DNA from: a virus
IMG/VR virus record: IMGVR_UViG_3300010355_001591
DNA: 25,331 nucleotides
Direction: 5' to 3' (one strand)
Made by a program: the position numbers and the translations under genes. Position 1 is the first letter of the stretch, and each line of letters starts with the position of its first letter. The notes below the pieces were generated by a model. That model searched no databases, was not told the DNA's origin, and worked only from the letters and a program-made list of their open reading frames with translations. This document shows positions 1 to 25,331 of this stretch, piece after piece.

Positions 1-127
1 AAACCTCTGATCCCATTCATCAAAATCCAATCTTTTATCCCAGCTCATTGTTATCTTATACAGTCATTTATGGATATAAAGATAACACTTTAACATCTAC
101 ACGTTACCATATCACCATAAGATAACA
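1..127 (+). repeat. Terminal direct repeat, left copy (circularity overlap)
   Basis: 1-127 is identical to 25205-25331; the integrase ORF runs through the junction. Confidence 0.97.
49..127. promoter_or_regulatory. 79-bp module bounded by the 11-bp inverted repeat TGTTATCTTAT/ATAAGATAACA, directly upstream of the integrase
   Basis: Arms at 49-59 and 117-127 are perfect reverse complements; internal GATAAC at 81-86. Confidence 0.5.
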
Positions 128-168
128 TCACCAGATTTTAAAATCTTTTATTTTTTTAAATAGATAGA

Positions 169-248
169 TATATATACCCATAAGTTCTATTAATGCTTGT
201 GAGTATATACATAAGTTTTAATAAAGCAAAACTATATATACCCATAGG
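169..248 (+). promoter_or_regulatory. Tandem TATA-like/operator repeats upstream of the early operon
   Basis: TATATATACCCATA at 169-182 and 233-246, with a partial copy TATATACATAAG at 204-215. Confidence 0.45.
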
Positions 249-257
249 TTGTAGTGT

Positions 258-295
258 AAATTGGAGGCAATAAAAATGGATGAAAAAGAAATAAA
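258..295 (+). repeat. 38-bp direct repeat (RBS plus first codons MDEKEI), copy 1
   Basis: AAATTGGAGGCAATAAAAATGGATGAAAAAGAAATAAA, identical at 948-985. Confidence 0.9.
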
Positions 296-428
296 AAGCT
301 GGGAAATGATAAATGGAATAATAGACACAATAGATTACGAAAGGATTAAGGGGATAAGAAATAAAAACCAGAATTTAGCAGACCATAAAGCAAGAATGGC
401 ATATAGAGAGATGGAAAAAATAATCTAA
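276..428 (+). CDS. Hypothetical protein, 50 aa (MDEKEIKSWEMINGII...)
   Basis: Translated by hand; GGAGG RBS; not in the ORF track. Confidence 0.7.
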   Translation: MDEKEIKSWEMINGIIDTIDYERIKGIRNKNQNLADHKARMAYREMEKII

Positions 429-475
429 CTCTCTATTATTTATTTTTAGAAAAAAAACAAAAATGGAGGTGTAAA

Positions 476-742
476 ATGAAAGCAAATGAAATAAAAACCG
501 TAAGTGAAGTCGATGGTGTTGCAGTAGAGAAAGAGGAGGTAATTGTAGATATGCAAAAAGATGGATGGGTTAATTCAGATGATGAGATCGAAATATTCGG
601 AGATGCTAAAAATCAAGAAGAAAGAGCAAACAGAATGATCGCTTTTTTAAGGAGATATCAGAGCGTTCTGCAAGATGAAACCATCGCCGAAATAGAGGGG
701 GCAGAAGCTCTCTCTATCAAACAGAGAAACACGAAGGTGTGA
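476..742 (+). CDS. Hypothetical acidic protein, 88 aa
   Basis: GGAGGTG RBS; stop overlaps the next gene. Confidence 0.75.
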   Translation: MKANEIKTVSEVDGVAVEKEEVIVDMQKDGWVNSDDEIEIFGDAKNQEERANRMIAFLRRYQSVLQDETIAEIEGAEALSIKQRNTKV

Positions 743-948
743 AAATGGACAAGATAGAACAACATTTTGAATGCGACCTTGATTGGTCACAATCTTATGC
801 CCTTTTCGAAAAATTGGGCGAGGCCATAATATTGAAAAAAATGCAGGAATTAAACGATGAAGAAAGACAAAACTTTGAAATGAGTGTCCAATTTAATATA
901 GAGTTTTACACACGATCAATCTTTGCGTGGCGACATGAGGATGATTAA
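739..948 (+). CDS. Hypothetical protein, about 69 aa (GTG start, or ATG at 745)
   Basis: AAGGTG RBS; operon position. Confidence 0.7.
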   Translation: MKMDKIEQHFECDLDWSQSYALFEKLGEAIILKKMQELNDEERQNFEMSVQFNIEFYTRSIFAWRHEDD

Positions 949-985
949 AATTGGAGGCAATAAAAATGGATGAAAAAGAAATAAA
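948..985 (+). repeat. 38-bp direct repeat, copy 2
   Basis: Identical to 258-295. Confidence 0.9.
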
Positions 986-1280
986 TATGCGGGAGGTTGA
1001 ATATTTCAGCTTCTTCGGGGCTGAGATAGCAAGTGAATATTTCAGCCAGGATGCTGGGATGCTGGAATTTTTAGGACTGTTAGACGAGGATGAAAAAGAA
1101 AGCCTTGTGCTCGATATCATGGTCAACCATGATAAAGAGACGGCACAATGGAGCATCGGAAACTGGAGGGGTGAGACGGTGCACCTATCTATGAAAACGA
1201 GCACGATCGATAACTCACGCTGGGAGGAGGACGATTATTATGGCGTGATGGAGTTCCTTAGATCGACTGGAGTGATCTAA
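966..1280 (+). CDS. Hypothetical acidic protein, 104 aa
   Basis: ATG at 966 follows GGAGG; the TTG at 951 used by the track lies within the RBS. Confidence 0.75.
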   Translation: MDEKEINMREVEYFSFFGAEIASEYFSQDAGMLEFLGLLDEDEKESLVLDIMVNHDKETAQWSIGNWRGETVHLSMKTSTIDNSRWEEDDYYGVMEFLRSTGVI

Positions 1281-1282
1281 AA

Positions 1283-1387
1283 ATGGAGTATGAGTATTGG
1301 AGTTTAGAACAAAAAATAGATCGGCTGGAGAGAAAGCTACGGGAGATCGAGACGAGATTGTTAACTTTAGAGGAGATGATAATATAA
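1283..1387 (+). CDS. Small coiled-coil protein, 34 aa (MEYEYWSLEQKIDRLERKLREIETRLLTLEEMII)
   Basis: Translated by hand; GGAGTGA RBS; heptad Leu/Ile pattern. Confidence 0.6.
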   Translation: MEYEYWSLEQKIDRLERKLREIETRLLTLEEMII

Positions 1388-1408
1388 AAATAAAAATGGA
1401 GGTTAAAA

Positions 1409-3952: not shown

Positions 3953-4135
3953 TGACAGCTGTGACAGCTGTGACAGCTGTGACAGCGATTATATTCTCCT
4001 ATTCTATGCTTTTTCTTATATATAAAGACTTCCAACATATATATATCGTTATATATAATGTGCATACCTTTATATACATTCCCGTTTGCAGATTCCGAGT
4101 ATATAGAAGGTGTCACAGCTGTCACAGCTGTCACA
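3953..4135. repeat. Putative replication origin: 9-bp iterons forming a 25-bp perfect inverted repeat around an AT-rich spacer
   Basis: TGACAGCTG x3 plus a partial copy at 3953-3986; 3960-3984 is the exact reverse complement of 4111-4135; 126-bp TA-rich spacer; directly downstream of the helicase. Confidence 0.7.
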
Positions 4136-4215
4136 CTTTATAGTAAATAATAAAAAAGTAATAAATAATAAAAGAGTTAATATAAATATAGATCATGGAT
4201 CTCAATCAAAAGAGA

Positions 4216-4294
4216 TGTTATCATATATCTATATCATAACGATATCCATAAAAAAAGTTATCTCTCCTTGGTAAAAAATAAGAATAAGATAACA
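4216..4294. promoter_or_regulatory. Second 79-bp module with near-identical inverted arms
   Basis: TGTTATCATAT at 4216-4226 and ATAAGATAACA at 4284-4294; same span as 49-127. Confidence 0.45.
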
Positions 4295-4404: not shown

Positions 4405-4896
4405 TCATCTCCCGAATATCCTGCTGAGTAACCCTCTTCCACTTTTCATCCCTTCCTCTTTTTGAGTAGGCACCGGTTCGCCACCTATCGCAGAAAGCAC
4501 CTCTTTTCTACCGTACCGGTTAGATCCAATAGACGAAAGACAAAACCCGATAATAAACTCGTCAATTTCTTTTGATCTGTTCCCGAGTGTCTTCTCTATA
4601 TCAGCATTCATCATTAGCAATACTGGCATGATAGCCCTCGAGTTCCCTTGCAGGTCTGACATTGCGATCAGCCGATGCAGGCTCTCTTCATCACCAGTGC
4701 GAGCTCTTGGTATCAACCCGTTGACGATATCCTCAATATCATCCCTAAGTCGTTCCTCTACAAGTGGTCGTCTTGCGTACGTCATCACCTCTTGCCCGTC
4801 ATCAGCATCTTTGTCTATTATCTCATCATCAATATCGTCGTCTACATCTCCGACATCATCATATTCCTGCCCATCTCTTTTTTTATTTTGAGCCAT
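4405..4896 (-). CDS. Hypothetical protein, 163 aa, with acidic N-terminus
   Basis: GAGGAGGT RBS; last gene of the minus-strand ATPase block. Confidence 0.8.
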   Translation of the reverse strand: MAQNKKRDGQEYDDVGDVDDDIDDEIIDKDADDGQEVMTYARRPLVEERLRDDIEDIVNGLIPRARTGDEESLHRLIAMSDLQGNSRAIMPVLLMMNADIEKTLGNRSKEIDEFIIGFCLSSIGSNRYGRKEVLSAIGGEPVPTQKEEGMKSGRGLLSRIFGR

Positions 4897-4914
4897 TTTA
4901 TACCTCCTCTATTT

Positions 4915-5070
4915 TTATATTGGCATCATGCACAACCCGCATAGTTCATCGACATACTTGATCAGGTCTTGCAGTGACCGATCAAAATACGATATCATCG
5001 TATTGCAATACCATTCTGGATACGATATACATATCATGCAGTCTATTATAGCACCAAACACCTCGGCCAT
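4915..5070 (-). CDS. Small Cys-rich protein, 51 aa (MAEVFGAIIDCMICISYPEWYCNTMISYFDRSLQDLIKYVDELCGLCMMPI)
   Basis: Translated by hand; fills the gap between neighbours; CxxC twice. Confidence 0.6.
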   Translation of the reverse strand: MAEVFGAIIDCMICISYPEWYCNTMISYFDRSLQDLIKYVDELCGLCMMPI

Positions 5071-5101
5071 TTTATACCATCTCTTTTGTTAGGATCCTCG
5101 C

Positions 5102-5614
5102 TCATCCAAAGAAGACGAACAGAATCAGTATCAGGACTATGACACCCATCAAAATACCCATGAAATCAACGCCTCGCTCTTGCTGGTGCATTCCACGAAT
5201 AGCATCCTCTATGATATGACTACCAACATATTTAGACACCCAAGACGGATCTATTTTTGATCCTATTTTTACATCGTTATTATTTTTGTCTTTATCTGGT
5301 GTATCCATATCCATTATACTCTTTTTGGCATCATCAATGCTTGTGTCACAATCAAAAGACATATTGAGAGCATCATTAACATACAATACTTTGCCGAGTG
5401 CATTGTCATATTCATAGATATATATATCCCGATCGTTCCAGATCAGATCCGGGGCATCTTTTCTAATAAAGAGTTTGCCACCCCACTCGAATTTATCCGT
5501 ACTAAACGGCTCGTTATCAACGCCGATCACTTCGTTATCTCTCATTATCCACGCTTGACAATACCGTTTACCTCTTCTTTTATGCTGCCATATTTGATAT
5601 GCAGAAAGCGACAT
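5102..5614 (-). CDS. C-terminally membrane-anchored protein, 170 aa (probable assembly-module component)
   Basis: C-terminal TM FMGILMGVIVLILILFVFFG; adjacent to the ATPase. Confidence 0.75.
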   Translation of the reverse strand: MSLSAYQIWQHKRRGKRYCQAWIMRDNEVIGVDNEPFSTDKFEWGGKLFIRKDAPDLIWNDRDIYIYEYDNALGKVLYVNDALNMSFDCDTSIDDAKKSIMDMDTPDKDKNNNDVKIGSKIDPSWVSKYVGSHIIEDAIRGMHQQERGVDFMGILMGVIVLILILFVFFG

Positions 5615-5617
5615 TTT

Positions 5618-5890
5618 TTATTTACCCCTCATATTTCGTATTGCCTGCCGTGCAAAAAAAACAAAGTACAGAACTCCAAGCAGGGCAACCATCACAGCAA
5701 AGATTGCATTAGTACTGAACATCATTAGCGCTATGAATATCGACGCAAATCCTAAAAATAATGCCAACAGGTTAAACCGTGTCATTGCATGTATGAACAT
5801 CACCGCTATATATATTATGAAAAAACCAACATAAGGGACAAAACTCCCTACATCAGATAAAGCCGCCTCAAAAATAGGCACGTTATCCAT
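5618..5890 (-). CDS. Small integral membrane protein, 90 aa, about 3 TM
   Basis: Three hydrophobic stretches, basic C-tail, AGGAG RBS. Confidence 0.75.
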   Translation of the reverse strand: MDNVPIFEAALSDVGSFVPYVGFFIIYIAVMFIHAMTRFNLLALFLGFASIFIALMMFSTNAIFAVMVALLGVLYFVFFARQAIRNMRGK

Positions 5891-6075
5891 TTTTTAGCTC
5901 CTTTTTATCATTTATTTTTAAAATTTAAAAATTTTAAAATTGTATAATATATATCTATTATAATAAAATATAAAGATATCCGTCAAGCAAAAAAAAATTT
6001 TCATTGTGGATATATACTGGGATTATATTGACGCAGGTAAAATGTATGGACGGACAATTCTCTTAAAGTCCTCAT

Positions 6076-7140
6076 TTATCCAATAACGGAAGTATTTTCA
6101 TTCAAATCCTTTGCCATCGTATGGCTACCATTTAATTCTCTGACTCTTAAATCTCTGATCCTATACTGCACCTGTTTAGCATGTGATAGAGCCTTTTTAA
6201 CATTCGTCTCTTTATCATTATACTTGTCTGCGATCTCTTTTATGGTCATACCGTCTATATATTCATCCGCATAAATTTGATATTTGTCTCTGTCTTTGTT
6301 CTTATCTATCTCGTCATGTTGCTCAATTTTATCGATATTTTTGCCCAGTTTATTGAACATATCCAGTTTTTTATCCTCATATTCTTTGATGATACGGTCT
6401 GATGGTTTACCCAGACGTATATCATTGATCTTTTTGTATGTTCCTGTGTTCTCATCAAATATAATCGGTCTATGCTTGTATATCTTGCCATAGTTTGGCT
6501 CTTTCTCTATGAAAAATGTTTTTAATATCGTATGCCCCCACGCCATATTGACTCCTTTTGTGATTCCTTGCACTAATGTTCTCTCTCGGAGGATCTTGTC
6601 AACTTCATAGAAAGACGGGGCAGTCAGGATGAAAAAGTTCCGTCGTGCACGTACCATGTCAAAATATTTTGTCAACCATTTAGAAAGTTTCGTCATTGAA
6701 TCCCTGCTATGGGCAAACGTCTCGACGTCATCCAATATTATTGTTTTTCTACCCTCCTCAACTCGGTCTCTCATCTCTCGGAGAGAGAAACAAACCGAGT
6801 CGACATCAAACTCGTCATCAGTGAGTATGCCTAATTTTATTGCAGAGTACGATTTACCACTTCCTGTCTGACCGTTAATCATCATCACACAGTTTAGTTT
6901 TGGCTCTGGCTGGTATATTCGTTTAACGATCCATGACACTACAGGATTGAGCACCTTCATGCCATCCCATGCAGCCAGCGGATCCATAAAATCGATATCG
7001 TCTATATTGAGCGGTCTAACATGATAATCTGTATCGGCTGACATTTTTTCTTGCTCAATATAAAAATCTCTAAAAGCCTGTCGTCTTGTTTCTATTTTAG
7101 ATGCGATGACAGGTTTTACACCATTAAAAAGTTTAACCAT
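6076..7140 (-). CDS. AAA+/P-loop ATPase of archaeal-virus type with C-terminal HTH-like extension
   Basis: Walker A GQTGSGKS; Walker B IILDD; R-x-RNFFILTAP..EVDKILR; GMTIKEIADKYN HTH-like segment; start at 7140 follows GGAGG. Confidence 0.85.
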   Translation of the reverse strand: MVKLFNGVKPVIASKIETRRQAFRDFYIEQEKMSADTDYHVRPLNIDDIDFMDPLAAWDGMKVLNPVVSWIVKRIYQPEPKLNCVMMINGQTGSGKSYSAIKLGILTDDEFDVDSVCFSLREMRDRVEEGRKTIILDDVETFAHSRDSMTKLSKWLTKYFDMVRARRNFFILTAPSFYEVDKILRERTLVQGITKGVNMAWGHTILKTFFIEKEPNYGKIYKHRPIIFDENTGTYKKINDIRLGKPSDRIIKEYEDKKLDMFNKLGKNIDKIEQHDEIDKNKDRDKYQIYADEYIDGMTIKEIADKYNDKETNVKKALSHAKQVQYRIRDLRVRELNGSHTMAKDLNENTSVIG

Positions 7141-7179
7141 TTTAACCTTATCCCTCCTTTTATCCAATTTATGATTAAC

Positions 7180-7233: not shown

Positions 7234-7407
7234 ACGTCTATATTAAGAGATCTTGAACAGATAGGGAAAGCGGCAATGGGTAAAGATACCGACTCCCCAG
7301 AATCTCCCGCTCTATATTCTGAATACCTGTTTATAAAGGCAATACAAGAGAGAAAAAAAGAGAAAAAAAGAAAAAAACAACAAAATAAAAAAGATAAAAA
7401 AGAGTGA
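7234..7407 (+). CDS. Small protein with Lys-rich tail (ACG at the start position, or ATG at 7276)
   Basis: GGAGGT RBS followed by an in-frame ACG; open to TGA at 7407. Confidence 0.4.
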   Translation, partial: TSILRDLEQIGKAAMGKDTDSPESPALYSEYLFIKAIQERKKEKKRKKQQNKKDKKE

Positions 7408-7424
7408 CCATGTCGATAATAATA
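7363..7424 (+). repeat. 62-bp direct repeat, copy 1
   Basis: Identical to 7734-7795 (...GAGTGACCATGTCGATAATAATA). Confidence 0.9.
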
Positions 7425-7430
7425 TAAAGT

Positions 7431-7661
7431 ATGAGTAAACTATCTGAACGCCGCAAAGAAAGAAGAATTAAGCAACTGAAAGAAGAAGTTGCGATATGCC
7501 GAGAAGCAGGATTTACCAATAATGAGGATATAAGCAGGATTATGCTATATAGACAACTTAACTATACAGCATCACTATTGTCTGAGAATCAGTGGATTGG
7601 CATGATCATTTTGATGCTTTTAGCATTTATAGCATTTATAATAGTAGAGCTCGCTCTTTGA
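7431..7661 (+). CDS. 76-aa protein, basic N-terminus and C-terminal TM, between the 62-bp repeats
   Basis: ORF track; hydrophobic C-terminus. Confidence 0.7.
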   Translation: MSKLSERRKERRIKQLKEEVAICREAGFTNNEDISRIMLYRQLNYTASLLSENQWIGMIILMLLAFIAFIIVELAL

Positions 7662-7733
7662 TCAAACATGATATTTATATATAGTAGTAGGTAAAAACAT
7701 AATTTTTAAAATCTATGCGTTTCAGACAAAACC

Positions 7734-7795
7734 AAAAAAAGAAAAAAACAACAAAATAAAAAAGATAAAAAAGAGTGACCATGTCGATAATAATA
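7734..7795 (+). repeat. 62-bp direct repeat, copy 2
   Basis: Identical to 7363-7424. Confidence 0.9.
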
Positions 7796-8195: not shown

Positions 8196-8366
8196 ATGAT
8201 GATCTATCAGGGATTTTGGAATTATGCATGCGATCTTATCCAGATACCTATACAAGAGACAATCAAATGGGTTTGTCTCTCTCTCATATATTTGGATTGG
8301 ATTTCATTGGTTAAAACTGGTATGGATTCTATGATAGGATATATATCTGGAATGGTGAATAAATAA
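8196..8366 (+). CDS. Amphipathic microprotein, 56 aa (MMIYQGFWNYACDLIQIP...)
   Basis: Translated by hand; TAATG overlap with the next ORF. Confidence 0.6.
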   Translation: MMIYQGFWNYACDLIQIPIQETIKWVCLSLIYLDWISLVKTGMDSMIGYISGMVNK

Positions 8367-8575
8367 TGGATTGTGTGGCGGCATGGATAGGAAACTGTGT
8401 AGGAATGGGAGATCTTGCAATAAAGACCACACTTCTTTTATGCCCATCAATAGATCCATTATGTATCGGATTGGCTTTGCGTGAGCTAATATCGCCGGTA
8501 ATACCTAGACTGAACGAGATCGCAGCATCAGTAAGAAGCATGCTAGAAGGATTAGGCGGGTTGGTGGGAGGCTAA
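8366..8575 (+). CDS. Cys/Gly-containing hydrophobic protein, 69 aa
   Basis: ORF track; GGTGA RBS; translationally coupled. Confidence 0.7.
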   Translation: MDCVAAWIGNCVGMGDLAIKTTLLLCPSIDPLCIGLALRELISPVIPRLNEIAASVRSMLEGLGGLVGG

Positions 8576-8578
8576 AAC

Positions 8579-8806
8579 ATGGATATGGTGTTTATATTAG
8601 GCGCTGGATTTGTTGGTGATGTTGCATCGATCTGTATGTCTGATATACCGCTCTGTATCAATTGGTTCGCGGCTGCATTATCACAGACGATACCAACGTT
8701 AACATCGTTTGTTGCACCTGTGTGCGGTTATGTCATAAATGTTGGGGCTAATTTTATAGTTAGCTCTGCGTCTCAGATTGTCAATATGATTCTTGGAACG
8801 GGATGA
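8579..8806 (+). CDS. Cys-containing hydrophobic protein, 75 aa
   Basis: ORF track; GGAGG RBS. Confidence 0.7.
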   Translation: MDMVFILGAGFVGDVASICMSDIPLCINWFAAALSQTIPTLTSFVAPVCGYVINVGANFIVSSASQIVNMILGTG

Positions 8807-8812
8807 TCAGTT

Positions 8813-9034
8813 ATGGAAACAATTTTAATCGTTTGGATGTATTTATTGGTGTTGTTTGTCTTGCTGCCGCTCATCATCATATTTTTAATAATGCGGGTGC
8901 TCCCATACAATATCAAACGGCTTGAAGATAAGATTGAAGATAAGACTGATGGTGTGCGTGGCGGTATCGAAAGATTTATAAACAACATTAACGATTTAAT
9001 AGAAATAGAAATAAATAATCGTAAAAAAACATAA
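8813..9034 (+). CDS. Bitopic membrane protein, 73 aa (N-terminal TM, charged helical tail)
   Basis: ORF track; hydrophobic residues 4-30. Confidence 0.75.
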   Translation: METILIVWMYLLVLFVLLPLIIIFLIMRVLPYNIKRLEDKIEDKTDGVRGGIERFINNINDLIEIEINNRKKT

Positions 9035-9094
9035 TGATGATTTAACCAACTCACCGAGCAAGGCGTCACAAAGGATTAAAAGAGGAGATAAATC

Positions 9095-15565: not shown

Positions 15566-15572
15566 ACGGTCT

Positions 15573-15768: not shown

Positions 15769-15924
15769 ATGGCAGGAATTGTATTTGGGGCGTTAGGAAT
15801 GATTACCGGCAGCATTGGTGCATTGCTTGGATCATTAAGCACATGCACAATAATGATTGATAGGATTGCCGATATTGCATCAAACCTAATAGAATGTTGT
15901 TTTGTGGGTATTCCATATTATTAA
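15769..15924 (+). CDS. Hydrophobic microprotein, 51 aa (MAGIVFGALGMITG...IECCFVGIPYY)
   Basis: Translated by hand; GAGGTGA RBS. Confidence 0.7.
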   Translation: MAGIVFGALGMITGSIGALLGSLSTCTIMIDRIADIASNLIECCFVGIPYY

Positions 15925-15951
15925 TAATAATCAAAATAAGAGGATAAAATA

Positions 15952-17424: not shown

Positions 17425-17442
17425 AAAGATGAAGAAGAGAAG

Positions 17443-17604
17443 ATGACCACTACAAAAGACAAAATAATTGTTGAAAAACAAAAATGTGATTGGTGTGGGT
17501 ACGAGTGGTATCCCAGATCAACTTCTGGGTTTAATCCCGTTCAGTGCCCACGCTGTCACAAATATATTAATATTGATCTAAAAAGTCAAAAAAGTAAAAA
17601 GTAA
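17443..17604 (+). CDS. Zinc-ribbon microprotein, 53 aa
   Basis: Translated by hand: CDWCGYEWYPR...CPRC. Confidence 0.8.
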   Translation: MTTTKDKIIVEKQKCDWCGYEWYPRSTSGFNPVQCPRCHKYINIDLKSQKSKK

Positions 17605-17624
17605 ACAAGGAGATGAAAGATTAA

Positions 17625-17906
17625 ATGAGCGGAATTTTAGCTAGTATATTTTGTTGTGGATTGCCACAGGCGTGTACAACTGCCCTTATATCAAATGTTT
17701 GCGGTAACACGATAGCAAACGCATGTGGTAACTCTATTGCTGGGTTGATACCTTCACTATCAACATTCTGTACAGGCATTCTCGGATCGTGTTCTACAAT
17801 CTGTGGATCTTTGGCAGGATTGATTGGTGGAGTTCTTGGCGGAGGTAGCTCTGGCGGTGCAACAAGTGGTTTGCCTGCTGTAATGAGCCAAGCCACTGGT
17901 AAATGA
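17625..17906 (+). CDS. Cys/Gly-rich hydrophobic protein, 93 aa
   Basis: AGGAG RBS; FCCGLP; ends ATGK. Confidence 0.75.
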   Translation: MSGILASIFCCGLPQACTTALISNVCGNTIANACGNSIAGLIPSLSTFCTGILGSCSTICGSLAGLIGGVLGGGSSGGATSGLPAVMSQATGK

Positions 17907-18039
17907 ACGGTGAATCCGATAACCATCGTAAGATATGATTTTTTTATGATGGTTCATCGCTGAATATCGTTGAATATTATAATCCTAACCAAAATAATAT
18001 ATAATGGTTGTTTAATAAATATAAAGAGGTGAAATAAAA

Positions 18040-18150
18040 ATGGGTGCTTTAGCTAACACAATTTTGGGGTATGTTATAGTTCTCCAAAACGAGATATATC
18101 GGGTGATTACAAAAGGACTTCAGGGGATAAATCTCGGAGGTGGTAAGTGA
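18040..18150 (+). CDS. Microprotein, 36 aa (MGALANTILGYVIVLQNEIYRVITKGLQGINLGGGK)
   Basis: Translated by hand; GAGGTGA RBS. Confidence 0.65.
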   Translation: MGALANTILGYVIVLQNEIYRVITKGLQGINLGGGK

Positions 18151-18272
18151 TGGGAATAATTCAATTATGCTGTCCAATACCATCGGTCGCAGTATTTGAT
18201 CAATTAGTTCGGAGCGCAGGAAACATAGGAATTGGTTTGATGCAGTCCTTATCAAAACTGATTGGGTTGTAA
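18150..18272 (+). CDS. Microprotein, 40 aa (MGIIQLCCPIPSVAVF...)
   Basis: Translated by hand; TGATG overlap; GGAGGTGG RBS. Confidence 0.65.
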   Translation: MGIIQLCCPIPSVAVFDQLVRSAGNIGIGLMQSLSKLIGL

Positions 18273-18343
18273 TTACAGAGTTTTTATTTTTAAATTATTT
18301 AATTTAAACAAAATATAAAAAATTTAAAGAGGTGTATTAGAGA

Positions 18344-18571
18344 ATGGCAAAAGCATTTGACATACAAGGCATAATGTATTTAGCAATCGGATTAATCATT
18401 ACGGGTGCTCTACTTCCAGTATCTTTGAACATGTTCACAAGTGCAGATATTGATTTTACAGGATCGTTGTCTGGGCTTGAGAATCTCTGGTCGTTAATAC
18501 CCATGATGGTTGTTCTTGCAATAGCGATTGCAGTTATATATTACGCCATGGACTCTATGAGAAACCAGTAA
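18344..18571 (+). CDS. Spindle-shaped virus major capsid protein-like (SSV1 VP1/VP3, His1 type), 75 aa
   Basis: Two hydrophobic helices (LAIGLIITGALLP and LWSLIPMMVVLAIAIAVIYY) joined by a short polar linker, matching the VP1 pattern GIVLLPV...LLNLVP..IL; flanked by AT-rich promoter-like and T-rich terminator-like tracts. Confidence 0.75.
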   Translation: MAKAFDIQGIMYLAIGLIITGALLPVSLNMFTSADIDFTGSLSGLENLWSLIPMMVVLAIAIAVIYYAMDSMRNQ

Positions 18572-18621
18572 GTCCAGATAGCACAATATGATTGCAAGAC
18601 TGGTAATAGCGAATAATTTAC

Positions 18622-18640
18622 ATTATTTTTTAATTTTTTC
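18622..18640 (+). terminator. T-rich terminator-like tract after the first MCP gene
   Basis: ATTATTTTTTAATTTTTTC. Confidence 0.4.
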
Positions 18641-18681
18641 AAATTCTATATATAAAGTAAAAATAGCAAGATGCGAAGAAT

Positions 18682-18984
18682 ATGAAATTAATGAAAACAA
18701 CCAGGGATTTTATTCATGATGATAACGGGGCATTCACCCTCAAAGAGATGGTAGAGGCAATTATTGCTCTCGGAGTGGGCATCATTCTTGCTGGGATACT
18801 TTTACCGATTGCGTTTCAGATGTTTGGTGGATTGCCAGAGAATCTGGCGGTTGGACCAGATATGCAGCCGACACTATTGGCGACCATCTGGGGATACATA
18901 CCTGTTATAGTTGTTGTAATGCTCATGATCGGATTGATATTTGCTATTATCGGCTGGTTCGGCGGCGGGGAAGAAGGATCATAA
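18682..18984 (+). CDS. Second MCP paralogue with a class III (prepilin-like) leader, 100 aa
   Basis: GIILAGILLPI...IWGYIPVIVVVMLMIG parallels MCP1; leader RDFIHDDNG/AFTLKE. Confidence 0.7.
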   Translation: MKLMKTTRDFIHDDNGAFTLKEMVEAIIALGVGIILAGILLPIAFQMFGGLPENLAVGPDMQPTLLATIWGYIPVIVVVMLMIGLIFAIIGWFGGGEEGS

Positions 18985-19003
18985 CAATATAGGAGGTACA
19001 ATA

Positions 19004-19171
19004 ATGAGTAATTTTAATTTCAAATCTTTTTTAACAAACGATGACGGAATAGGCGGATTGTTAGATTCTATGATTGCGTATTGGGGTCCAGTAATGCAGG
19101 CGTGTGCTGCTGAGATGGGCATAATTATTAAAACTGTCATATTAGCAATAGGAATAACCGGAGGCAAGTAA
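19004..19171 (+). CDS. 55-aa hydrophobic protein with the same leader type (KSFLTNDDG/IGGLL)
   Basis: ATG at 19004 follows GGAGGT; ends TGGK. Confidence 0.7.
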   Translation: MSNFNFKSFLTNDDGIGGLLDSMIAYWGPVMQACAAEMGIIIKTVILAIGITGGK

Positions 19172-19172
19172 A

Positions 19173-19295
19173 ATGGCAATACCATATTTAATAATCTCGT
19201 CATGTATGCCCTCATCGCAGATGATGGTTTATCTCATTCAATCAGTATTTGGATCTCTATCTTTGTTTTTGCAACAAGTTGCATCAGCACTATGA
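19173..19295 (+). CDS. Hydrophobic microprotein, 40 aa (MAIPYLIISSCMPSSQMMVYLIQSVF...)
   Basis: Translated by hand; GGAGG RBS; no D/E/K/R. Confidence 0.6.
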   Translation: MAIPYLIISSCMPSSQMMVYLIQSVFGSLSLFLQQVASAL

Positions 19296-19329
19296 AGACT
19301 GGTATAAACATGGTAAAGATGAGGCAATT

Positions 19330-20235
19330 ATGGCAATACAAGATAATCCAGCACGAGTTAGTATTTTTTTAGTCTCTCTTCTCTTATTATTAGTGATAAC
19401 TCCCTTTTTCTCTGTCTCTCTTACTACGGCACAAGATGTTACTGTTGCTACTACAGATCAAACTACCAGTAACACTGTTATTACAAAAGATGATGCCAAG
19501 ACAGACACAACAAACACCATAACACAAACTAAAACTTTTTTTAATCAGTTGTCGGATGCTGCAAAAACAGCAGCAGACCTCTATCCAGATGTTCGGTCTG
19601 GCACATATACAACCAGACCTGCACCAGAGGATGAACAAGCCACAACAACAGATTATGCCATAAGAACCACAACGTATGGAGATGAGCCTGCTGTATATTC
19701 TCAAAAGCAGGCGAACACATCAACGTACTCTATAACTCAACCACCAGCCATGCCATCCAGCAAAACCACTGGAAGAATGACTGGGGCATATTCAGTCACT
19801 CAACCACCAGCGGTTAAGATGACACCACTAATAATGCCAACAGTAACACCCGCAACACCAATACAGCCACCACCGATAAGTGGAGGAGGACTGGGTTTAG
19901 GTGGTAATGGTAATGGACAAATTACCGGTGTGGGAGATGTGACGGGATATATAAATGAGGGTACGGGATTCATAACTGATGCCGTAAATACAGCGTTCGC
20001 TCATAAAGAGATCCTCTATATGATGGCAATCCTAATCATCGCCGCAATATTCGCACAGATCGGAGGATGGAGGATAGGAGTTATCGGATTGGTAGGCATG
20101 TTGCTTGTCTGTGCAGGAATAACAGCATCAACTGGCATAATGATCGTACCTACATACGTGATATTCGTGATTGCGATCTTTGCCGTTGCATTAGTGATTA
20201 TATCTTTTACAAGAACGATGGGCGGAGGAAGTTAG
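19330..20235 (+). CDS. Secreted Thr/Pro-rich protein with about 3 C-terminal TM helices (VP4-like spike/tail topology), 301 aa
   Basis: ATG at 19330 follows GAGG; signal peptide; YS(I/V)TQPPA x2; C-terminal TM cluster. Confidence 0.7.
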   Translation: MAIQDNPARVSIFLVSLLLLLVITPFFSVSLTTAQDVTVATTDQTTSNTVITKDDAKTDTTNTITQTKTFFNQLSDAAKTAADLYPDVRSGTYTTRPAPEDEQATTTDYAIRTTTYGDEPAVYSQKQANTSTYSITQPPAMPSSKTTGRMTGAYSVTQPPAVKMTPLIMPTVTPATPIQPPPISGGGLGLGGNGNGQITGVGDVTGYINEGTGFITDAVNTAFAHKEILYMMAILIIAAIFAQIGGWRIGVIGLVGMLLVCAGITASTGIMIVPTYVIFVIAIFAVALVIISFTRTMGGGS

Positions 20236-20236
20236 G

Positions 20237-21118
20237 ATGAGCAGGTATCTAACCAGCCTAATCATATTCGGTGCTGTTTATTTTCTTATCGTAGCCATGT
20301 TTGCCCCTGGAGTGCCTGCAGGATATAGTGATCAGATCTTTGCAGAGGCAGAACAAATATCGTCATCCAATGTTGCTAAAGATCTTCAGATCACTGTCAC
20401 CACTGAGGGCACTCCATCCAAAAGTTTATTGCCAGAAAACGTTGGCAAGTTTGAACCGTTCAACCTGTCGCATGTCCATCCTAACAATGTCCCGAGCGTG
20501 ACAGAACGTCGTGCCAATCTTCAATCTGGAGAGATGATCGCTCCTGTCAGAGACGGTCAGGTGATGTTGTATCATGAGAACATGTTCTATTCTGCCATGC
20601 CCGTTTATTTTTCAGTGCCGTTATCAGAGATACAAGGACCAATCAGAACGATCGAAGAATACAACTCGCAGTTTATAGTATTCCGTCCTGACATGAACAC
20701 GCAAGTTATTGAGACGTATTATAACCAGATGTTAGGAAGCGAGCAGATCAAATCACGAGTCGAGGCGGAACAACAGTCAGCACAATATCAGTCGCTCGGG
20801 TTGATCGAGAGGATCGGTCAGTCTGTTTCGAATATGATCGCATCGATAGGTTCACAGGTGATGAAGGTATTCGGTGATGTTATAAATCCGTTGCTATCAA
20901 TCAAATACTCGCTTACTTATGATTTTGGAATATCAGAACTATTCGGATTGGAAAGACCGTTCACGATCGGTCAGATCATCTGTTATATTTGGTCTCTTGC
21001 AGTGTTTATAGAAATATTCATGATCCTGCCCGAATCAAGCAGTACGATAGGAACTGCTTTAAAATATGTGATAGGTATAGGGATAGCCGTACCTTGGTTT
21101 ACATTCCTTGCATTCTAA
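20237..21118 (+). CDS. Membrane protein with N-terminal signal/TM and two C-terminal TMs, 293 aa (probable virion pole component)
   Basis: Topology and position directly after the VP4-like gene. Confidence 0.7.
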   Translation: MSRYLTSLIIFGAVYFLIVAMFAPGVPAGYSDQIFAEAEQISSSNVAKDLQITVTTEGTPSKSLLPENVGKFEPFNLSHVHPNNVPSVTERRANLQSGEMIAPVRDGQVMLYHENMFYSAMPVYFSVPLSEIQGPIRTIEEYNSQFIVFRPDMNTQVIETYYNQMLGSEQIKSRVEAEQQSAQYQSLGLIERIGQSVSNMIASIGSQVMKVFGDVINPLLSIKYSLTYDFGISELFGLERPFTIGQIICYIWSLAVFIEIFMILPESSSTIGTALKYVIGIGIAVPWFTFLAF

Positions 21119-21136
21119 AACACGAGATGATAAGAT

Positions 21137-21436
21137 ATGACTACAAAATATGGCTTCATGATAAAGACTGAACAAGTTGAGATGAAAGATGCTCTTAATC
21201 TGGTAGAAGACTACAAGAAAAAGCGTAAAGAACGGTTAGAGCTCATGAAGAAAGTTGAGACGAAAGCGGACAAGAACCGGCTCAAAAAATTAGCCGAGTA
21301 TGCTCGTGATCAAGGCAACCATTATGCTGCTCTTGCAAAGATCCATGCAGCCGAGATCAAACAGCTGAGAGCAATACAGAATAAAAAACCAAGAAAAAAC
21401 AGAACAAAAGTAAAGATAAATAAATGGCGGACGTGA
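21137..21436 (+). CDS. Basic coiled-coil protein, 99 aa
   Basis: K/R-rich helical sequence. Confidence 0.75.
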   Translation: MTTKYGFMIKTEQVEMKDALNLVEDYKKKRKERLELMKKVETKADKNRLKKLAEYARDQGNHYAALAKIHAAEIKQLRAIQNKKPRKNRTKVKINKWRT

Positions 21437-21441
21437 TATAA

Positions 21442-22281
21442 ATGAACCCAATTCTTTGTTATCCCGGTGGAAAGAGAGGACTAAAAAAAGAGATCTTAAA
21501 AAGAATTCCCCCGCATGACACATATATTGAGCCTTTTGTTGGTGGTGGGAGCGTCTTCTTTGCAAAGCCGAGAGCTAAAAAAGAGATTATCAATGATAAA
21601 GATAAAGATTTAATAGATTTTTACAAAGCATGCAGAAGACCTGACGTATCTTTTAAAAAGGCAAATTTACGTGCATCACGAGAACGATATGAGAAATATA
21701 AAAAAAGTAAGCCTAAAACCCCGCAATCAAAAGTAAACCGTTTCCTATACCTTAATAAACGGAGTTTTGGTGGTGTGATGAATAATGGTTATTATGCACC
21801 GTCCACGGCTAAAACGAAAGGGAAGGGAGGAGGACAGGAGGGTATTAAAAAGATCGGTAGAGAACAACAGGACCGACTTCGTGGGGTAAAGATAGAGAAC
21901 AGAGATTTTGAGAAAGTTATTAAAGATTACGATAACAAGAACGCCTTTATCTATATGGATCCACCATATTATGGAGAATCAAGAGGGCTGTATAAGCATG
22001 ATGATAGATCAGCCACACCAGAGCGTGTCTTACAGGCAGCTGCAAGAGCAAAAGGTAAATGTCTCGTCTCATATAATGATTGCCCGGAAGTAAGAAAAAT
22101 CGCTCGTAAATTAGGACTTTATATATACCAAGTGCGGACGAAGTATTCCTTGAATAGTGCAAGTAATAATAAAGATAAAACAGAGTTGTTAATAAGCAAC
22201 TATCCAATGAGGAATGGTAAACCTGTAAAAACAAAGACGGGGAGGGGGCAAACGATAAAGAGGGATATAAATGGTCACTAA
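21442..22281 (+). CDS. Dam/D12-class N6-adenine DNA methyltransferase
   Basis: YPGGKR; motif I YIEPFVGGGSVFF; IINDKD; NRDFEKVI; catalytic motif IV FIYMDPPY; LVSYND; ELLISNY. Confidence 0.93.
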   Translation: MNPILCYPGGKRGLKKEILKRIPPHDTYIEPFVGGGSVFFAKPRAKKEIINDKDKDLIDFYKACRRPDVSFKKANLRASRERYEKYKKSKPKTPQSKVNRFLYLNKRSFGGVMNNGYYAPSTAKTKGKGGGQEGIKKIGREQQDRLRGVKIENRDFEKVIKDYDNKNAFIYMDPPYYGESRGLYKHDDRSATPERVLQAAARAKGKCLVSYNDCPEVRKIARKLGLYIYQVRTKYSLNSASNNKDKTELLISNYPMRNGKPVKTKTGRGQTIKRDINGH

Positions 22282-23221
22282 AAAAAAGAATTTAAAAGAG
22301 TGGGCTCGTGTTGACTGGGCAAGAAATGCAGTATCATCACATGCAAACATGATCGATTATGGAAAAAAGGCAAAAATAATAGTCCCCGATACTCAAGATG
22401 CCTTTACGGACTGGTATTATAAAGGTGGGCATAAAAAATACGACTTCGAGGGAAAAGACCATCCGATACCTCAAGCAAAAAAAGTTGCAAACACACATTA
22501 CAAATATGCGACAGCCTCCGGTGCCCGCAACGCTGGTATTATTGCGAAACGTGCAGAAAAAATCCTGTTAAATAATTTTACCAGAAAAGAAAGAAGCCAG
22601 ATGGGAAAAATAATCTTTAGCGTTAGACCTATTGTAAAAAGTGAGGATGCAGCAGGAATGATCGAATATAGAGGAAGGGGGGATGCTTCCGTTATAACTA
22701 TTGATGATAGTTATGTTGATGATGAAGACATATTCACGCATGAATTAGTTCATGCTCGACTGTACGGAACGAATACTGAGCCAAAGGATAGAGATACCCA
22801 TGAAAAAATGACAGAACTGGAGACAGTAGGAAGGATATCTCACCCAGAGAAAAAAAAGGCAGGGTATTATCACTATCTTAAAAAAAGTTCTATAAGTATG
22901 ATAGATGCCATAAAGCACGATAGGATATTATTGACTGGTTCGATGACGAAAAGCAGGAAAGGCGATAGATTTGTTGCAGATGTACGTAAAAAATATAATG
23001 AGTCAATGATAAAAGACGCTCATTTCTCTCCAGCAGAAAAATTAGACCGATATTACCAAGTCATATTGCCTGATGGTGAAAAAATATCTATCCATCAAAG
23101 AGGCAAACCAAATGCAAAAGTCTCACTATCTAAGATTGTTCAAAATTTTAAAAAGAGGTATGGGAAAGATATCAAAGTATACGAGTGGAGAGACGGTAAG
23201 AGAGTACTATTAAGGAGGTGA
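22271..23221 (+). CDS. Basic protein with a zincin-like HExxH motif (putative metallopeptidase), 316 aa
   Basis: AAG..(n)..ITID...IFTHELVHARL...E; overlaps the MTase stop. Confidence 0.6.
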   Translation: MVTKKKNLKEWARVDWARNAVSSHANMIDYGKKAKIIVPDTQDAFTDWYYKGGHKKYDFEGKDHPIPQAKKVANTHYKYATASGARNAGIIAKRAEKILLNNFTRKERSQMGKIIFSVRPIVKSEDAAGMIEYRGRGDASVITIDDSYVDDEDIFTHELVHARLYGTNTEPKDRDTHEKMTELETVGRISHPEKKKAGYYHYLKKSSISMIDAIKHDRILLTGSMTKSRKGDRFVADVRKKYNESMIKDAHFSPAEKLDRYYQVILPDGEKISIHQRGKPNAKVSLSKIVQNFKKRYGKDIKVYEWRDGKRVLLRR

Positions 23222-23228
23222 GGTAAAA

Positions 23229-23354
23229 ATGACCGCTAAAAAAATTAAAGATCTTGGGATAAAGCGACAAAAAGGCAAGCTATATTTCGTTAAAGGCGAT
23301 CCGCTGTCGGTGTATGAGGCTGACATGTCTCGTGGCAAAAAAAGGAAAAAATAA
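23229..23354 (+). CDS. Small basic protein, 41 aa (MTAKKIKDLGIKRQKGKLYFVKGDPLSVYEADMSRGKKRKK)
   Basis: Translated by hand; GGAGGTGAGG RBS. Confidence 0.7.
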   Translation: MTAKKIKDLGIKRQKGKLYFVKGDPLSVYEADMSRGKKRKK

Positions 23355-23370
23355 TGGAAGATGATTTAAG

Positions 23371-23733
23371 ATGGCACGAAAAAAACTAACCATTCGCAGG
23401 AAAGGGTATCATAGAAAAGGGTATACACGGAAAGACGGTACTAAAGTTAGTCCAGCGTACGTGCCTCCATCTACATATAAAGCAGAAGACCGGGGAGAGT
23501 CTGGAAGAACTCCTAAAAGTAAAAAATGGTATAAACCAACGACCACGATGAACTGGTCTAAAGATATGCCTGTTGCTGAAAGAAGAAGGAACGCATTACG
23601 GGCTCATGGTGGAGATGCTCTTGCAACTGCCAGAGCGTTACAGGCACTATCAAATGTTACGACTGATCGAGAGACAAAAAGAGAGGCTGAGAAAGATGCA
23701 AAGTATTTCTTTGATCTCCATAAGAAAAAATAA
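23371..23733 (+). CDS. Highly basic protein, 120 aa; candidate DNA-condensing core protein
   Basis: RKGYHRKGYTRKDG repeat and a helical C-terminal domain (RRRNAL..HGG.AL..AR.LQAL). Confidence 0.7.
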   Translation: MARKKLTIRRKGYHRKGYTRKDGTKVSPAYVPPSTYKAEDRGESGRTPKSKKWYKPTTTMNWSKDMPVAERRRNALRAHGGDALATARALQALSNVTTDRETKREAEKDAKYFFDLHKKK

Positions 23734-23770
23734 ATAGTATTAAATATTAATAATAAGGAGTGATAATAAA

Positions 23771-24055
23771 ATGAGACATATTAGAGAGTTGTTTAAAAAC
23801 GATGATGCACTTGCAACAATAGGTTGTGGATTAGCAGGAACTCCATTGGGACTGCTCGGTCTATGTTGTGGACCACTAAACTTGTGTTTTTGTTGTTTAC
23901 CAACAATAATACCAGCATTTATCGGTGGAGGAATAGGTGCAGCAATAGGATGCGTGACTGATGCTATTGTTACAGCATGCAGCCCAATCATGGCATTGTT
24001 AGGATGTGCTGGTGGATCAACCAGCGGCAGCACAGTTCAAGCCATAAGAGTCTAA
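23771..24055 (+). CDS. Cys/Gly-rich hydrophobic protein with a class III-like leader, 94 aa
   Basis: GGAGTGA RBS; RELFKNDDA/LATIG; CCGP and CFCCLP. Confidence 0.75.
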   Translation: MRHIRELFKNDDALATIGCGLAGTPLGLLGLCCGPLNLCFCCLPTIIPAFIGGGIGAAIGCVTDAIVTACSPIMALLGCAGGSTSGSTVQAIRV

Positions 24056-24263
24056 AAGTTTTTAAACTTTTTATCTTTTTTTTAATCTTTTCTATTAAAT
24101 ACATATTAAAAAGCGTAAATAATCATCATCTAAAATTATTGTGTAATAAAACATACACGAGCCATCATTATCGATCGTTTTTGATGCCTCTATGATTCTC
24201 TATTTAGAAAAAAGCAATTAAAAAAAGTAATAAAAAAATAATAAATAGATTAAATTACAAAAA

Positions 24264-24344
24264 TTAAAAAAATGAACTTATCAGACTCATTATGATCTGG
24301 ATAGGCGACATGCACGCCTGACCAAACATGCTCATTATATCCAT
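24264..24344 (-). CDS. Microprotein, 26 aa (MDIMSMFGQACMSPIQIIMSLISSFF)
   Basis: Translated by hand; perfect GGAGGTGA RBS. Confidence 0.55.
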   Translation of the reverse strand: MDIMSMFGQACMSPIQIIMSLISSFF

Positions 24345-24375
24345 TTTATTCTTCACCTCCAAAATTATTTCATTT

Positions 24376-24504
24376 TTAACAACACAACAAAACATTCTTT
24401 AATTCTTTTAGCGGATACATTAATATTGTAGTTACGTTCTCTACAAGCACTCGTATCATTGATGTATATGCAGATAATACAGATACTGACAAAAATGCTA
24501 CCAT
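24376..24504 (-). CDS. Microprotein, 42 aa (MVAFLSVSVLSAYTSMIRVLVENVTTILMYPLKELKNVLLCC)
   Basis: Translated by hand; the same 20-bp RBS/start cassette as 24341-24360 recurs at 24501-24520. Confidence 0.6.
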   Translation of the reverse strand: MVAFLSVSVLSAYTSMIRVLVENVTTILMYPLKELKNVLLCC

Positions 24505-24505
24505 T

Positions 24506-24631
24506 TTATTCTTCACCTCCCTTTTTTTCTATTTTAACCAAGCTTCTACAGTCTGGGCATGTAGCATATACTGACTTTGCACCGGTATATTCCCATTCAT
24601 TTCCGCATTTTTTGCATTTTAGCAATACCAT
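24506..24631 (-). CDS. Zinc-ribbon microprotein, 41 aa
   Basis: Translated by hand: MVLLKCKKCGNEWEYTGAKSVYATCPDCRSLVKIEKKGGEE. Confidence 0.8.
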   Translation of the reverse strand: MVLLKCKKCGNEWEYTGAKSVYATCPDCRSLVKIEKKGGEE

Positions 24632-24691
24632 ATTTTATTTCAACCCGTATTATTATTACTATTATTAATATTATATAAACTTATTTTTTTT

Positions 24692-25252
24692 TCATTTGAT
24701 GAAATTCATCTTTATTATATCAGCCTCGTCTTCAGCAGTATAATTTTCTATCGTCTGGATGTTCGTATGCCGTATCGCTTTGGAGATCAGGTTTGTAGGC
24801 ACACCTTCACGCCCCATCTTGGCGATCCATGAATACCGAAGAGAGTGAGTGTTGATCTTGTAATATCGCATTGCAAACATCTTAACCCCATTCAATACCT
24901 TATCAAAAGAATAGTCCAGATCTAAATATTGTTTTTTCACGGCAGACGGTATCTTGATCAGGGCATCAACATCTTTGCCCTTGCTCAGTTTTTTACGTTT
25001 CCGTGCCCTTATCTTTTGTATTCTCTCATTGTTATTTTTGAAACTCAAGACCGCCTCAACAGCCTCTGATATCCTTGAACCGTTCTCTATCTGAGTCAAG
25101 AGAATTGAAGTATAAAGAAGACGGGTAAGAACTGTTGCCGGTACTGGTCTCTTTTTCAATTCGTTATACTCTTTTTCTTTGGCAAGATCTCGAAGGTCAT
25201 TCTTAAACCTCTGATCCCATTCATCAAAATCCAATCTTTTATCCCAGCTCAT
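24692..25252 (-). CDS. Compact tyrosine recombinase (integrase/resolvase), 186 aa
   Basis: Catalytic R (NGSRISEA), K (RKRK), HxxR (THSLRY), H (IRHTN) and Y (IENY). Confidence 0.88.
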   Translation of the reverse strand: MSWDKRLDFDEWDQRFKNDLRDLAKEKEYNELKKRPVPATVLTRLLYTSILLTQIENGSRISEAVEAVLSFKNNNERIQKIRARKRKKLSKGKDVDALIKIPSAVKKQYLDLDYSFDKVLNGVKMFAMRYYKINTHSLRYSWIAKMGREGVPTNLISKAIRHTNIQTIENYTAEDEADIIKMNFIK

Positions 25253-25331
25253 TGTTATCTTATACAGTCATTTATGGATATAAAGATAACACTTTAACAT
25301 CTACACGTTACCATATCACCATAAGATAACA
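25205..25331 (+). repeat. Terminal direct repeat, right copy (circularity overlap)
   Basis: Identical to 1-127. Confidence 0.97.

Follow-up and report, generated by a model that had tools for sequence, protein, structure and literature searches.

A closed circular genome of a probable spindle-shaped archaeal virus with a hydrophobic, cysteine- and glycine-rich late region and a probable host in Candidatus Methanoliparia

The virus record IMGVR_UViG_3300010355_001591 of IMG/VR is a stretch of DNA of 25,331 nt, which is referred to below as the window; all positions are those of this full stretch. The window contains the complete genome of a circular virus of 25,204 bp. In our opinion, this is likely to be a temperate or chronic spindle-shaped virus of archaea with major capsid proteins (MCPs) of the His1/SSV1 type, belonging to a small mosaic lineage known solely from metagenome contigs (JGI, ENA and Logan) and having its probable host in Ca. 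Methanoliparia, archaea that turn long-chain alkanes into methane in oil reservoirs. This assignment is based on a pair of short two-helix capsid proteins, on an operon with a P-loop ATPase and on the occurrence of related viral contigs in metagenome-assembled genomes (MAGs) of one archaeal class. The genome also has a late region, in which almost uncharged proteins rich in Cys and Gly, including one of 1117 amino acid residues (aa), are encoded.

Closure of the genome

The first and the last 127 nt of the window (1–127 and 25205–25331) are 100% identical, and from this exact repeat a unit length of 25,204 bp follows. The open reading frame (ORF) of the integrase begins inside the overlap and its reading frame is unbroken. 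The junction is also bridged by two independent metagenome contigs. In the first (L007), a homologue of 261–428 adjoins the integrase, which is followed by the homologues of 23771–24055 and 23371–23733; the second (G002:C124) corresponds to 24522–25331 plus 2–295 of the window and is aligned without a break. The collinearity of both contigs over the junction, along with the exact end repeat, demonstrates that the genome is circular. Thus, a complete, closed circle, which had been proposed in an earlier reading made from the sequence alone, is confirmed.

The guanine plus cytosine (GC) content of the virus is 0.39. The gene models (40 in all) were taken from the list of ORFs. Pfam scans of all of them revealed no terminase, HK97 capsid protein, jelly-roll capsid protein or DNA polymerase PolB, and an Rfam search of the genome gave no match.

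Capsid proteins and ATPase of the spindle-virus type

The small spindle-shaped viruses of the His1/SSV1 type are recognized by an MCP of about 70–100 aa with two hydrophobic helices, belonging to the family PF25665 (His1_capsid), and by a P-loop/AAA+, DnaA-like ATPase. Both were found in the window, in agreement with the spindle-virus reading made earlier from the sequence.

MCP1 exceeds the PF25665 cut-off, which is 27 bits, and MCP2 is its paralogue (30% identity, E 3e-8). When a joint profile of the two proteins was compared with VP21, the capsid protein of His1, using hhalign, both helices were aligned (86.7%, E 4.4e-6). The AlphaFold2 (AF2) model, with a predicted local distance difference test (pLDDT) value of 70, is a two-helix hairpin formed by the helices 7–33 and 40–73; the MCP pair suggested earlier from the sequence is therefore retained, along with the hairpin shape expected of it. 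VP1 of SSV19 (7xdi_A) was the top Foldseek match of MCP1 in PDB (E 1.6) and the second match in the profile search (E 0.34), neither of them being significant. The Foldseek comparison of the model with PDB and BFVD gave nothing significant, a hairpin of two helices being too simple for scoring. Searches of the MCPs against PDB with phmmer gave chance membrane matches alone and were discarded, and tblastn of the MCP against phage and archaeal-virus records found no match.

The N-terminal leader of MCP2, DDNG-AFTLKEMVEA (NEDA-AFTIKEMVEA in L007 and in another related contig, L013), looks like a class III (prepilin) signal having Glu at position +5. Similar NDD(G/A) leaders are present in two further late proteins (19004–19171 and 23771–24055). 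No N_methyl match was obtained in Pfam, and the match to a pilin in PDB had an E value of only 0.6.

The ATPase (6076–7167, minus strand) consists of 363 aa with Walker A and Walker B motifs and a C-terminal helix-turn-helix (HTH) part. Its matches in Pfam and PHROG are weak and of VapE-like and DnaA-like types (phrog_5484, E 3e-5), and it shows 28% identity over 189 aa to a "DnaA-like" protein of the Haloferax lemon-shaped virus LSV-48N. The profile of a six-member family of these ATPases was aligned by hhalign with ORF16 of His1 (83.7%, E 8e-6) over a region spanning both Walker motifs, which substantiates the ATPase module noticed before; in the comparison of this profile with PDB, the HTH part alone was matched, and weakly. 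The ATPase gene is followed by the genes of a 90-aa protein with two transmembrane (TM) helices (5618–5890) and of a 170-aa protein with a C-terminal TM helix (5102–5614). The order of these genes, from the ATPase with its HTH through the 2-TM protein to the anchored proteins, with the MCPs encoded on the other strand, parallels ORF16–20 of His1.

The host

The evidence on the host comes from two MAGs and from one surface protein. A contig of 2.9 kb with 95–99% identity to the window belongs to the third-party annotation MAG GCA_013329575.1 (G002), which is labelled "Halobacteria archaeon" in its record and encodes McrA. The family, the order and the class of this MAG comprise the same five genomes of 1.2–1.8 Mb. 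A second MAG of the class (G006) contains a diverged viral relative on a contig of 14.6 kb, with about 50% amino acid identity in the late genes, an ORF of 1131 aa corresponding to the giant protein and a truncated MCP. Another contig of the same MAG (G006:C91, 1279–1614) was noticed to encode a partial counterpart of the 320-aa Cys-rich protein, so that this MAG may contain either a pair of related viruses or one virus in two fragments.

All five genomes of the class encode a canonical McrA, for which no identity above 74% was seen with McrA from other lineages; among named organisms, Methanocella and Methanomicrobiales come closest (70–72%). Three of the five genomes have a second McrA, which is 39–42% identical to the first one, the second copies being 83–86% identical among themselves. 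In Ca. Methanoliparia, a canonical and a highly divergent alkane-type (ACR-like) methyl-coenzyme M reductase (MCR) were described in one genome, with McrA types about 41% identical (PMC6703427). From this mcr content, which matches that publication, and from the size of the class, we infer that the class is Ca. Methanoliparia.

The 490-aa surface protein of the virus, which has a signal peptide, Ig-like repeats and a C-terminal anchor, is homologous to cell-surface proteins of the class. Its cellular homologues were found in all five class genomes (E 1e-17 to 2.5e-39) and in 11 of the 396 genomes sampled elsewhere in the phylum, and its three best cellular matches are all within the candidate host class.

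The virus could also be real and belong to another archaeon of the same habitats, such as Methanosarcina, Methanothrix or Methanomicrobiales, with its placement in the MAGs being a binning artefact. This is, in our opinion, somewhat unlikely. The MAG contigs are short and have no host flanks, and the GC content of the virus (0.39) differs from the values of 0.40–0.49 in the host loci sampled. One relative, a fragment of 5.8 kb (L006, CAYWXW010000171.1), was binned in a MAG of an uncultured Porticoccaceae bacterium, almost certainly by error. No CRISPR (clustered regularly interspaced short palindromic repeats) spacer, attachment-site (att)-like or tRNA match to the candidate host genomes was found, and no integrated copy of the virus was seen. 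Short matches in one contig (G004:C7) were considered as CRISPR spacers and rejected as A-rich low-complexity sequence without a repeat array. Against an artefact stand the different members of the lineage carried by two independent MAGs of a single class of five species, and the best cellular homologues of the surface protein in all five genomes of this class. As there is no spacer, tRNA or att match and one relative is misbinned, the link of the virus with Ca. Methanoliparia is regarded as probable, not proven. In this way, the "methanogen/ANME-like" host (ANME, anaerobic methanotrophic archaea) guessed from the sequence was borne out and narrowed to one mcrA-bearing class. No paper on viruses of Ca. 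Methanoliparia was found in the literature searched.

Relation to known spindle-shaped viruses

His1 (Halspiviridae, AF191796) shares with the window the homologous two-helix MCP (VP21), the homologous ATPase-HTH protein, the gene order described above and proteins with a signal and an anchor 3' of the MCP. The BLAST-level similarity is limited to the MCP, with E of about 0.003 when that genome is searched alone. In contrast to the circular genome of 25.2 kb considered here, His1 is linear (14.5 kb), has inverted terminal repeats and encodes a PolB of the protein-primed type. The window has a superfamily 3 (SF3) helicase along with a Dam methylase and an integrase, and His1 has neither a giant hydrophobic protein nor a set of Cys/Gly-rich proteins. 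Since the genome is circular and no PolB was found in its gene models, the virus is not a halspivirus.

LSV-48N (PP151251) is likewise circular, of about 25 kb and provided with integrases and a methyltransferase, but the ATPase is the sole detectably shared protein and the host is halophilic. Among the proteins of LSV-48N, the large ones are soluble and the small hydrophobic ones contain little Cys. Fuselloviridae (SSV1, SSV19) have circular double-stranded DNA of similar size, a tyrosine integrase, paired MCPs VP1/VP3 and a DnaA-like ATPase. They differ in their Sulfolobales hosts and have no hyper-hydrophobic Cys-rich module, and the scores of the comparison with SSV19 given above are not significant. 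Fuselloviruses are marked by an SSV-type integrase with attP within its gene and by core genes common to the SSVs. The window encodes a tyrosine recombinase, but no att site or integrated copy was found, and there was no BLAST-level similarity to fuselloviruses.

It is also conceivable that the virus belongs to a known group, the late genes being simply an unannotated part of it. The nearest groups by description are Eurekaviridae, with Methanosarcina spindle-shaped virus 1 (MSSV1), and Itzamnaviridae of ANME-1, both circular, with two MCP genes and connected with methane-cycling archaea. MSSV1 has a complete circular genome with two MCP copies, the same outline as the window, and no similarity to other spindle-shaped viruses (ICTV summary). 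Itzamnaviridae are marked by gene content in common with GBV303 or PBV082 and by an ANME-1 host. The hosts predicted for the two groups, Methanosarcina and ANME-1, differ from the class indicated here, and pletoitzamnaviruses have PolB and large enzymatic arms, none of which was seen in the window. No NCBI virus protein was present in the 15 clusters (90% identity) found for proteins of the window, five more proteins, the giant one included, being absent from the collection. The searches for homologues of the ATPase and the helicase gave no match carrying a virus name. We therefore regard membership in a known group as quite unlikely, with the limit that the records PQ167755, OP880254 and OP413839 were compared by description only.

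Megablast of the whole genome against the INPHARED phages gave no match, scans of IMG/VR with the helicase and with the ATPase profile found no relative, and tblastn against phage and archaeal-virus records showed no similarity besides the ATPase of LSV-48N. Since the late proteins have no relatives outside a tiny family, a new lineage of His1/SSV-type spindle-shaped viruses fits better than an unannotated part of a known one, these being the two options left by the sequence-only reading. Eurekaviridae and Itzamnaviridae were compared with it by description only, which is the main risk to its novelty.

Inside the lineage, the ATPase of L006 is 49% identical to that of the window and stands beside late genes that are 90–100% identical. 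The region 20237–21118 is 97% identical to L013 and 56–57% identical to two other contigs, L016 and L008. Such sharp mosaicism between relatives indicates frequent recombination within the lineage. It was observed in 20237–23221 in comparisons with L007, L008, L013 and L016.

Hydrophobic proteins of the late region

It had been suggested from the sequence that roughly half of the genome encodes uncharged proteins rich in Cys, Gly and Met. These proteins are real, and their share is smaller. Proteins with less than 6% of charged residues account for 5.8 kb (23% of the genome), and about 35% is reached when the MCPs, the Met-rich protein and the remaining small hydrophobic proteins are counted as well; one half (about 51%) corresponds to the whole late block, 8196–21118. 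Orthologues of the late genes occur in L006, L007, L008, L013, L016 and L017, and in the more distant L030, and the ratios of nonsynonymous to synonymous substitution rates (dN/dS) are 0.05–0.5. Orthologues in at least six related contigs, taken with these ratios, show that the late genes are real and are under purifying selection. The hydrophobic late proteins gave no Pfam or PHROG match, and the Cys/Gly/Met-rich ones have no relatives in Pfam, PHROG, PDB or the ESM Atlas outside a very small family.

The giant protein has a grand average of hydropathy (GRAVY) of 2.32 and contains 90 Cys and 106 Gly, no Lys and 8 K/R/D/E residues in total. It is far more hydrophobic than every other protein in this genome or in LSV-48N. 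Its ORF is unbroken in four diverged genomes (1056, 1074, 1117 and 1131 aa; GRAVY 2.3–2.5; at most 8 charged residues; 65–104 Cys), with dN/dS of 0.2–0.4 in the plus frame. The ratio was 0.22 in the plus frame versus 0.30 in the antisense frame at the same wobble positions, so the strands are not separable by dN/dS alone. Long antisense ORFs over the gene are broken at different places in each genome. The unbroken plus-strand ORF and the different fragmentation of the antisense ones identify the plus strand as the coding one. In public gene calls, three to four antisense genes are placed over the giant ORF (9095–12448 in the window, 1331–4270 in L016 and 485–3544 in L017). This keeps the protein out of protein databases and out of reach of protein searches; it was not present in the protein collection searched.

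About 150 aa at the N-terminus and about 470 aa at the C-terminus of the giant protein are conserved, and its middle part is divergent. Inside the gene, a tandem array encodes CIIGxxx heptads, with many copies in the window, fewer in L016 and none in L017 or L030. Given this variability between relatives, the array is a recent and dispensable expansion. A continuous helix with a stripe of Cys residues was considered for these heptads and found doubtful, most of them having Gly and many having Pro.

The 320-aa protein contains a Cys/Asn/Gly-rich domain that is conserved. When 1.84 billion cluster representatives were searched exhaustively with a profile, only six proteins of this family came up, four clear and two weak. 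There was no usable match in the ESM Atlas, and AF2 on an alignment of 10 sequences gave pLDDT 31. One protein of this family, of 387 aa (P0283; L031, 10001–11164, Logan SRR28876185) was noticed on a cellular-looking contig with an even GC content of 0.54 and genes of FtsZ, RNase H and an aminotransferase. In this protein, the Cys-rich domain (61% identity to residues 31–213 of the 320-aa protein) is joined with a hyper-hydrophobic tail of Leu/Cys type; the protein may represent either a homologue in the host or a viral gene that was domesticated.

The next gene encodes a membrane-anchored protein with 20% Met, which matches the XPC-binding domain PF09280 with 34.3 bits at a cut-off of 26.4; chains of RAD23 were also weakly matched. 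The XPC-binding fold is related to Met-rich STI1 domains, which hold hydrophobic clients, and this STI1-like motif suggests the role of a holdase for the Met-rich protein. Small Gly/Cys-rich proteins are encoded further downstream, one of which (149 aa) contains 29% Gly. The idea that the small Cys/Gly-rich proteins are paralogues of the MCPs, or of one another, was ruled out by comparison. Downstream of the MCPs, there are two membrane-anchored proteins of 328 and 293 aa, the first having a Thr/Pro-rich ectodomain. Both are highly mosaic among the relatives and are candidate terminal or adsorption proteins.

With about one third of the coding capacity devoted to membrane-like protein, and with no precedent for this in the spindle-shaped viruses examined (LSV-48N and His1 are without such proteins), the particle might be imagined as pleomorphic or vesicle-like, the hydrophobic proteins being those of an envelope. 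The homology of the MCP and the ATPase is to His1, however, and no homologue of a pleolipovirus spike or Rep was found in Pfam and PHROG scans, which makes a particle of this kind very unlikely. Most improbable of all is an element without virions, i.e., a plasmid or a defective or satellite element with MCP-like genes: particles were never observed, the integrase is short and a backbone of helicase and integrase is common in archaeal plasmids, but the full structural module (two MCPs, the ATPase operon and surface proteins) is under purifying selection in at least six relatives.

Replication, integration and other genes

The positions of the features are collected in Table 1. The helicase, already recognized as SF3 from the sequence, is confirmed by domain matches and, unlike many longer homologues, has no primase domain. 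Directly behind its stop codon lies an element in which a TA-rich spacer of about 120 bp separates four TGTGACAGC iterons from three inverted copies of the iteron; it is a plausible replication origin. The recombinase suggested earlier proved to be a tyrosine integrase reduced to the catalytic domain.

In the early block, a protein of 124 aa (1521–1895) matches phrog_30542 (E 2e-11) and also phrog_21731, both of unknown function. Inverted motifs of the TGTTATC...GATAACA type were observed at 49–127 and 4216–4294, bracketing this block. The divergent control region lies between the ATPase operon and the late operon, and its sequence is kept upstream of the ATPase in L004 and L006. Among the genes behind the late block, 21442–22281 encodes a Dam-type N6-adenine methyltransferase according to Pfam and PHROG. 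The soluble 316-aa protein (22271–23221), which has no Pfam or PHROG match, contains the motif HELVH (HExxH) and may be a metalloprotease, perhaps one maturing the late proteins.

Table 1. Features of the window with their positions, strands and supporting observations
Feature	Position	Strand	Remarks
Terminal overlap	1–127		100% identical to 25205–25331; assembly signature of a 25,204-bp circle
Early block, small acidic soluble proteins of 55–124 aa	261–2061	+	94–100% amino acid identity to L007
D5-like SF3 helicase, 466 aa	2537–3937	+	DUF5906, D5_N, Pox_D5; phrog_864, E 9e-99
Putative replication origin	3953–4136		Iterons and TA-rich spacer, directly 3' of the helicase stop codon
ATPase operon	4405–7167	−	P-loop ATPase with HTH; 90-aa, 170-aa, 51-aa and acidic 163-aa proteins
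Divergent control region	7363–7795		Two perfect 62-nt A-rich direct repeats, 7363–7424 and 7734–7795
Four small hydrophobic proteins, 56–75 aa, head of the late operon	8196–9034	+	dN/dS 0.09–0.31; no Pfam match
Giant hyper-hydrophobic protein, 1117 aa	9095–12448	+	ORF unbroken in four diverged genomes
21-nt tandem array coding CIIGxxx heptads, inside the giant gene	9674–10224	+	
320-aa protein, signal peptide, conserved Cys/Asn/Gly-rich domain	12700–13662	+	
Met-rich protein, 253 aa, 20% Met, N-terminal TM anchor, NPxML repeats	13665–14426	+	PF09280
Five small Gly/Cys-rich hydrophobic proteins, 76/149/107/62/51 aa	14512–15924	+	dN/dS 0.07–0.5; no Pfam match
490-aa surface protein, signal peptide, Ig-like repeats, C-terminal TM anchor	15952–17424	+	Homologous to cell-surface proteins of the class
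53-aa zinc-ribbon protein and 93-aa Cys/Gly-rich hydrophobic protein	17443–17906	+	
MCP1, His1/SSV-type two-helix MCP, 75 aa	18344–18571	+	PF25665 His1_capsid, 32.6 bits
MCP2, paralogue, 100 aa	18682–18984	+	PF25665, 18.8 bits; conserved N-terminal leader (DDNG-AFTLKE)
Pair of membrane-anchored proteins (328 and 293 aa) 3' of the MCPs	19249–21118	+	No Pfam or PHROG match
Basic 99-aa protein, Dam methyltransferase, 316-aa HExxH protein, very basic 120-aa protein, Cys-rich 94-aa hydrophobic protein	21137–24055	+	
Tyrosine integrase, 186 aa, catalytic domain only	24692–25252	−	PF00589; phrog_9208, E 3e-23

Proposed life cycle

The following course of events may be proposed for this virus. The helicase would be loaded at the iteron origin, with the primase and the polymerase being those of the host, and the integrase would permit lysogeny. 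The MCPs would enter the host membrane as hairpins and build the spindle-shaped shell. Hydrophobic components of the virion or of its assembly site, namely, the small Cys/Gly-rich proteins along with the 1117-aa protein, would be co-assembled, and the membrane-anchored Met-rich STI1-like protein would act as a holdase for the hydrophobic late proteins. The host-derived 490-aa surface protein, along with the mosaic 328- and 293-aa proteins, would mediate adsorption.

A number of points weigh against the interpretation of the window as a temperate or chronic spindle-shaped virus of Ca. Methanoliparia. No virion has been observed, and its spindle morphology is deduced solely from the homology of the MCPs, the fold match (Foldseek E 1.6) being not significant. 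The roles of the hydrophobic proteins are putative, and the model of the 320-aa protein failed. The integrase has merely 186 aa, and no integrated copy was found. As for the host, CRISPR spacer matches were absent, the name Methanoliparia was deduced from mcr content and class size and was assigned by no tool, and the co-binning of short contigs can be an artefact, as in the case of L006.

A more far-reaching possibility, which we consider unlikely, is that the giant protein and the Cys/Gly-rich mini-proteins form a previously unknown virion or assembly structure, namely, a covalently linkable, lipid-like protein phase that would extend or line the hydrophobic MCP lattice and would be serviced by the Met-rich STI1-like holdase; the virus lineage would then be the first one linked with methanogens that degrade alkanes.

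Significance

The closed genome, together with a plausible link to a host, provides a handle for studies of Ca. Methanoliparia by CRISPR, Hi-C and enrichment-culture approaches and, possibly, a genetic tool. In practical respect, it is of importance that standard gene callers put antisense ORFs over the giant gene and so hide it from protein databases. The late module indicates that spindle-shaped viruses can give about one third of the genome to nearly charge-free proteins, including a conserved one of about 1100 residues. The making, insertion and use of such proteins bear on the question of how the membrane-like capsids of spindle-shaped viruses are built.

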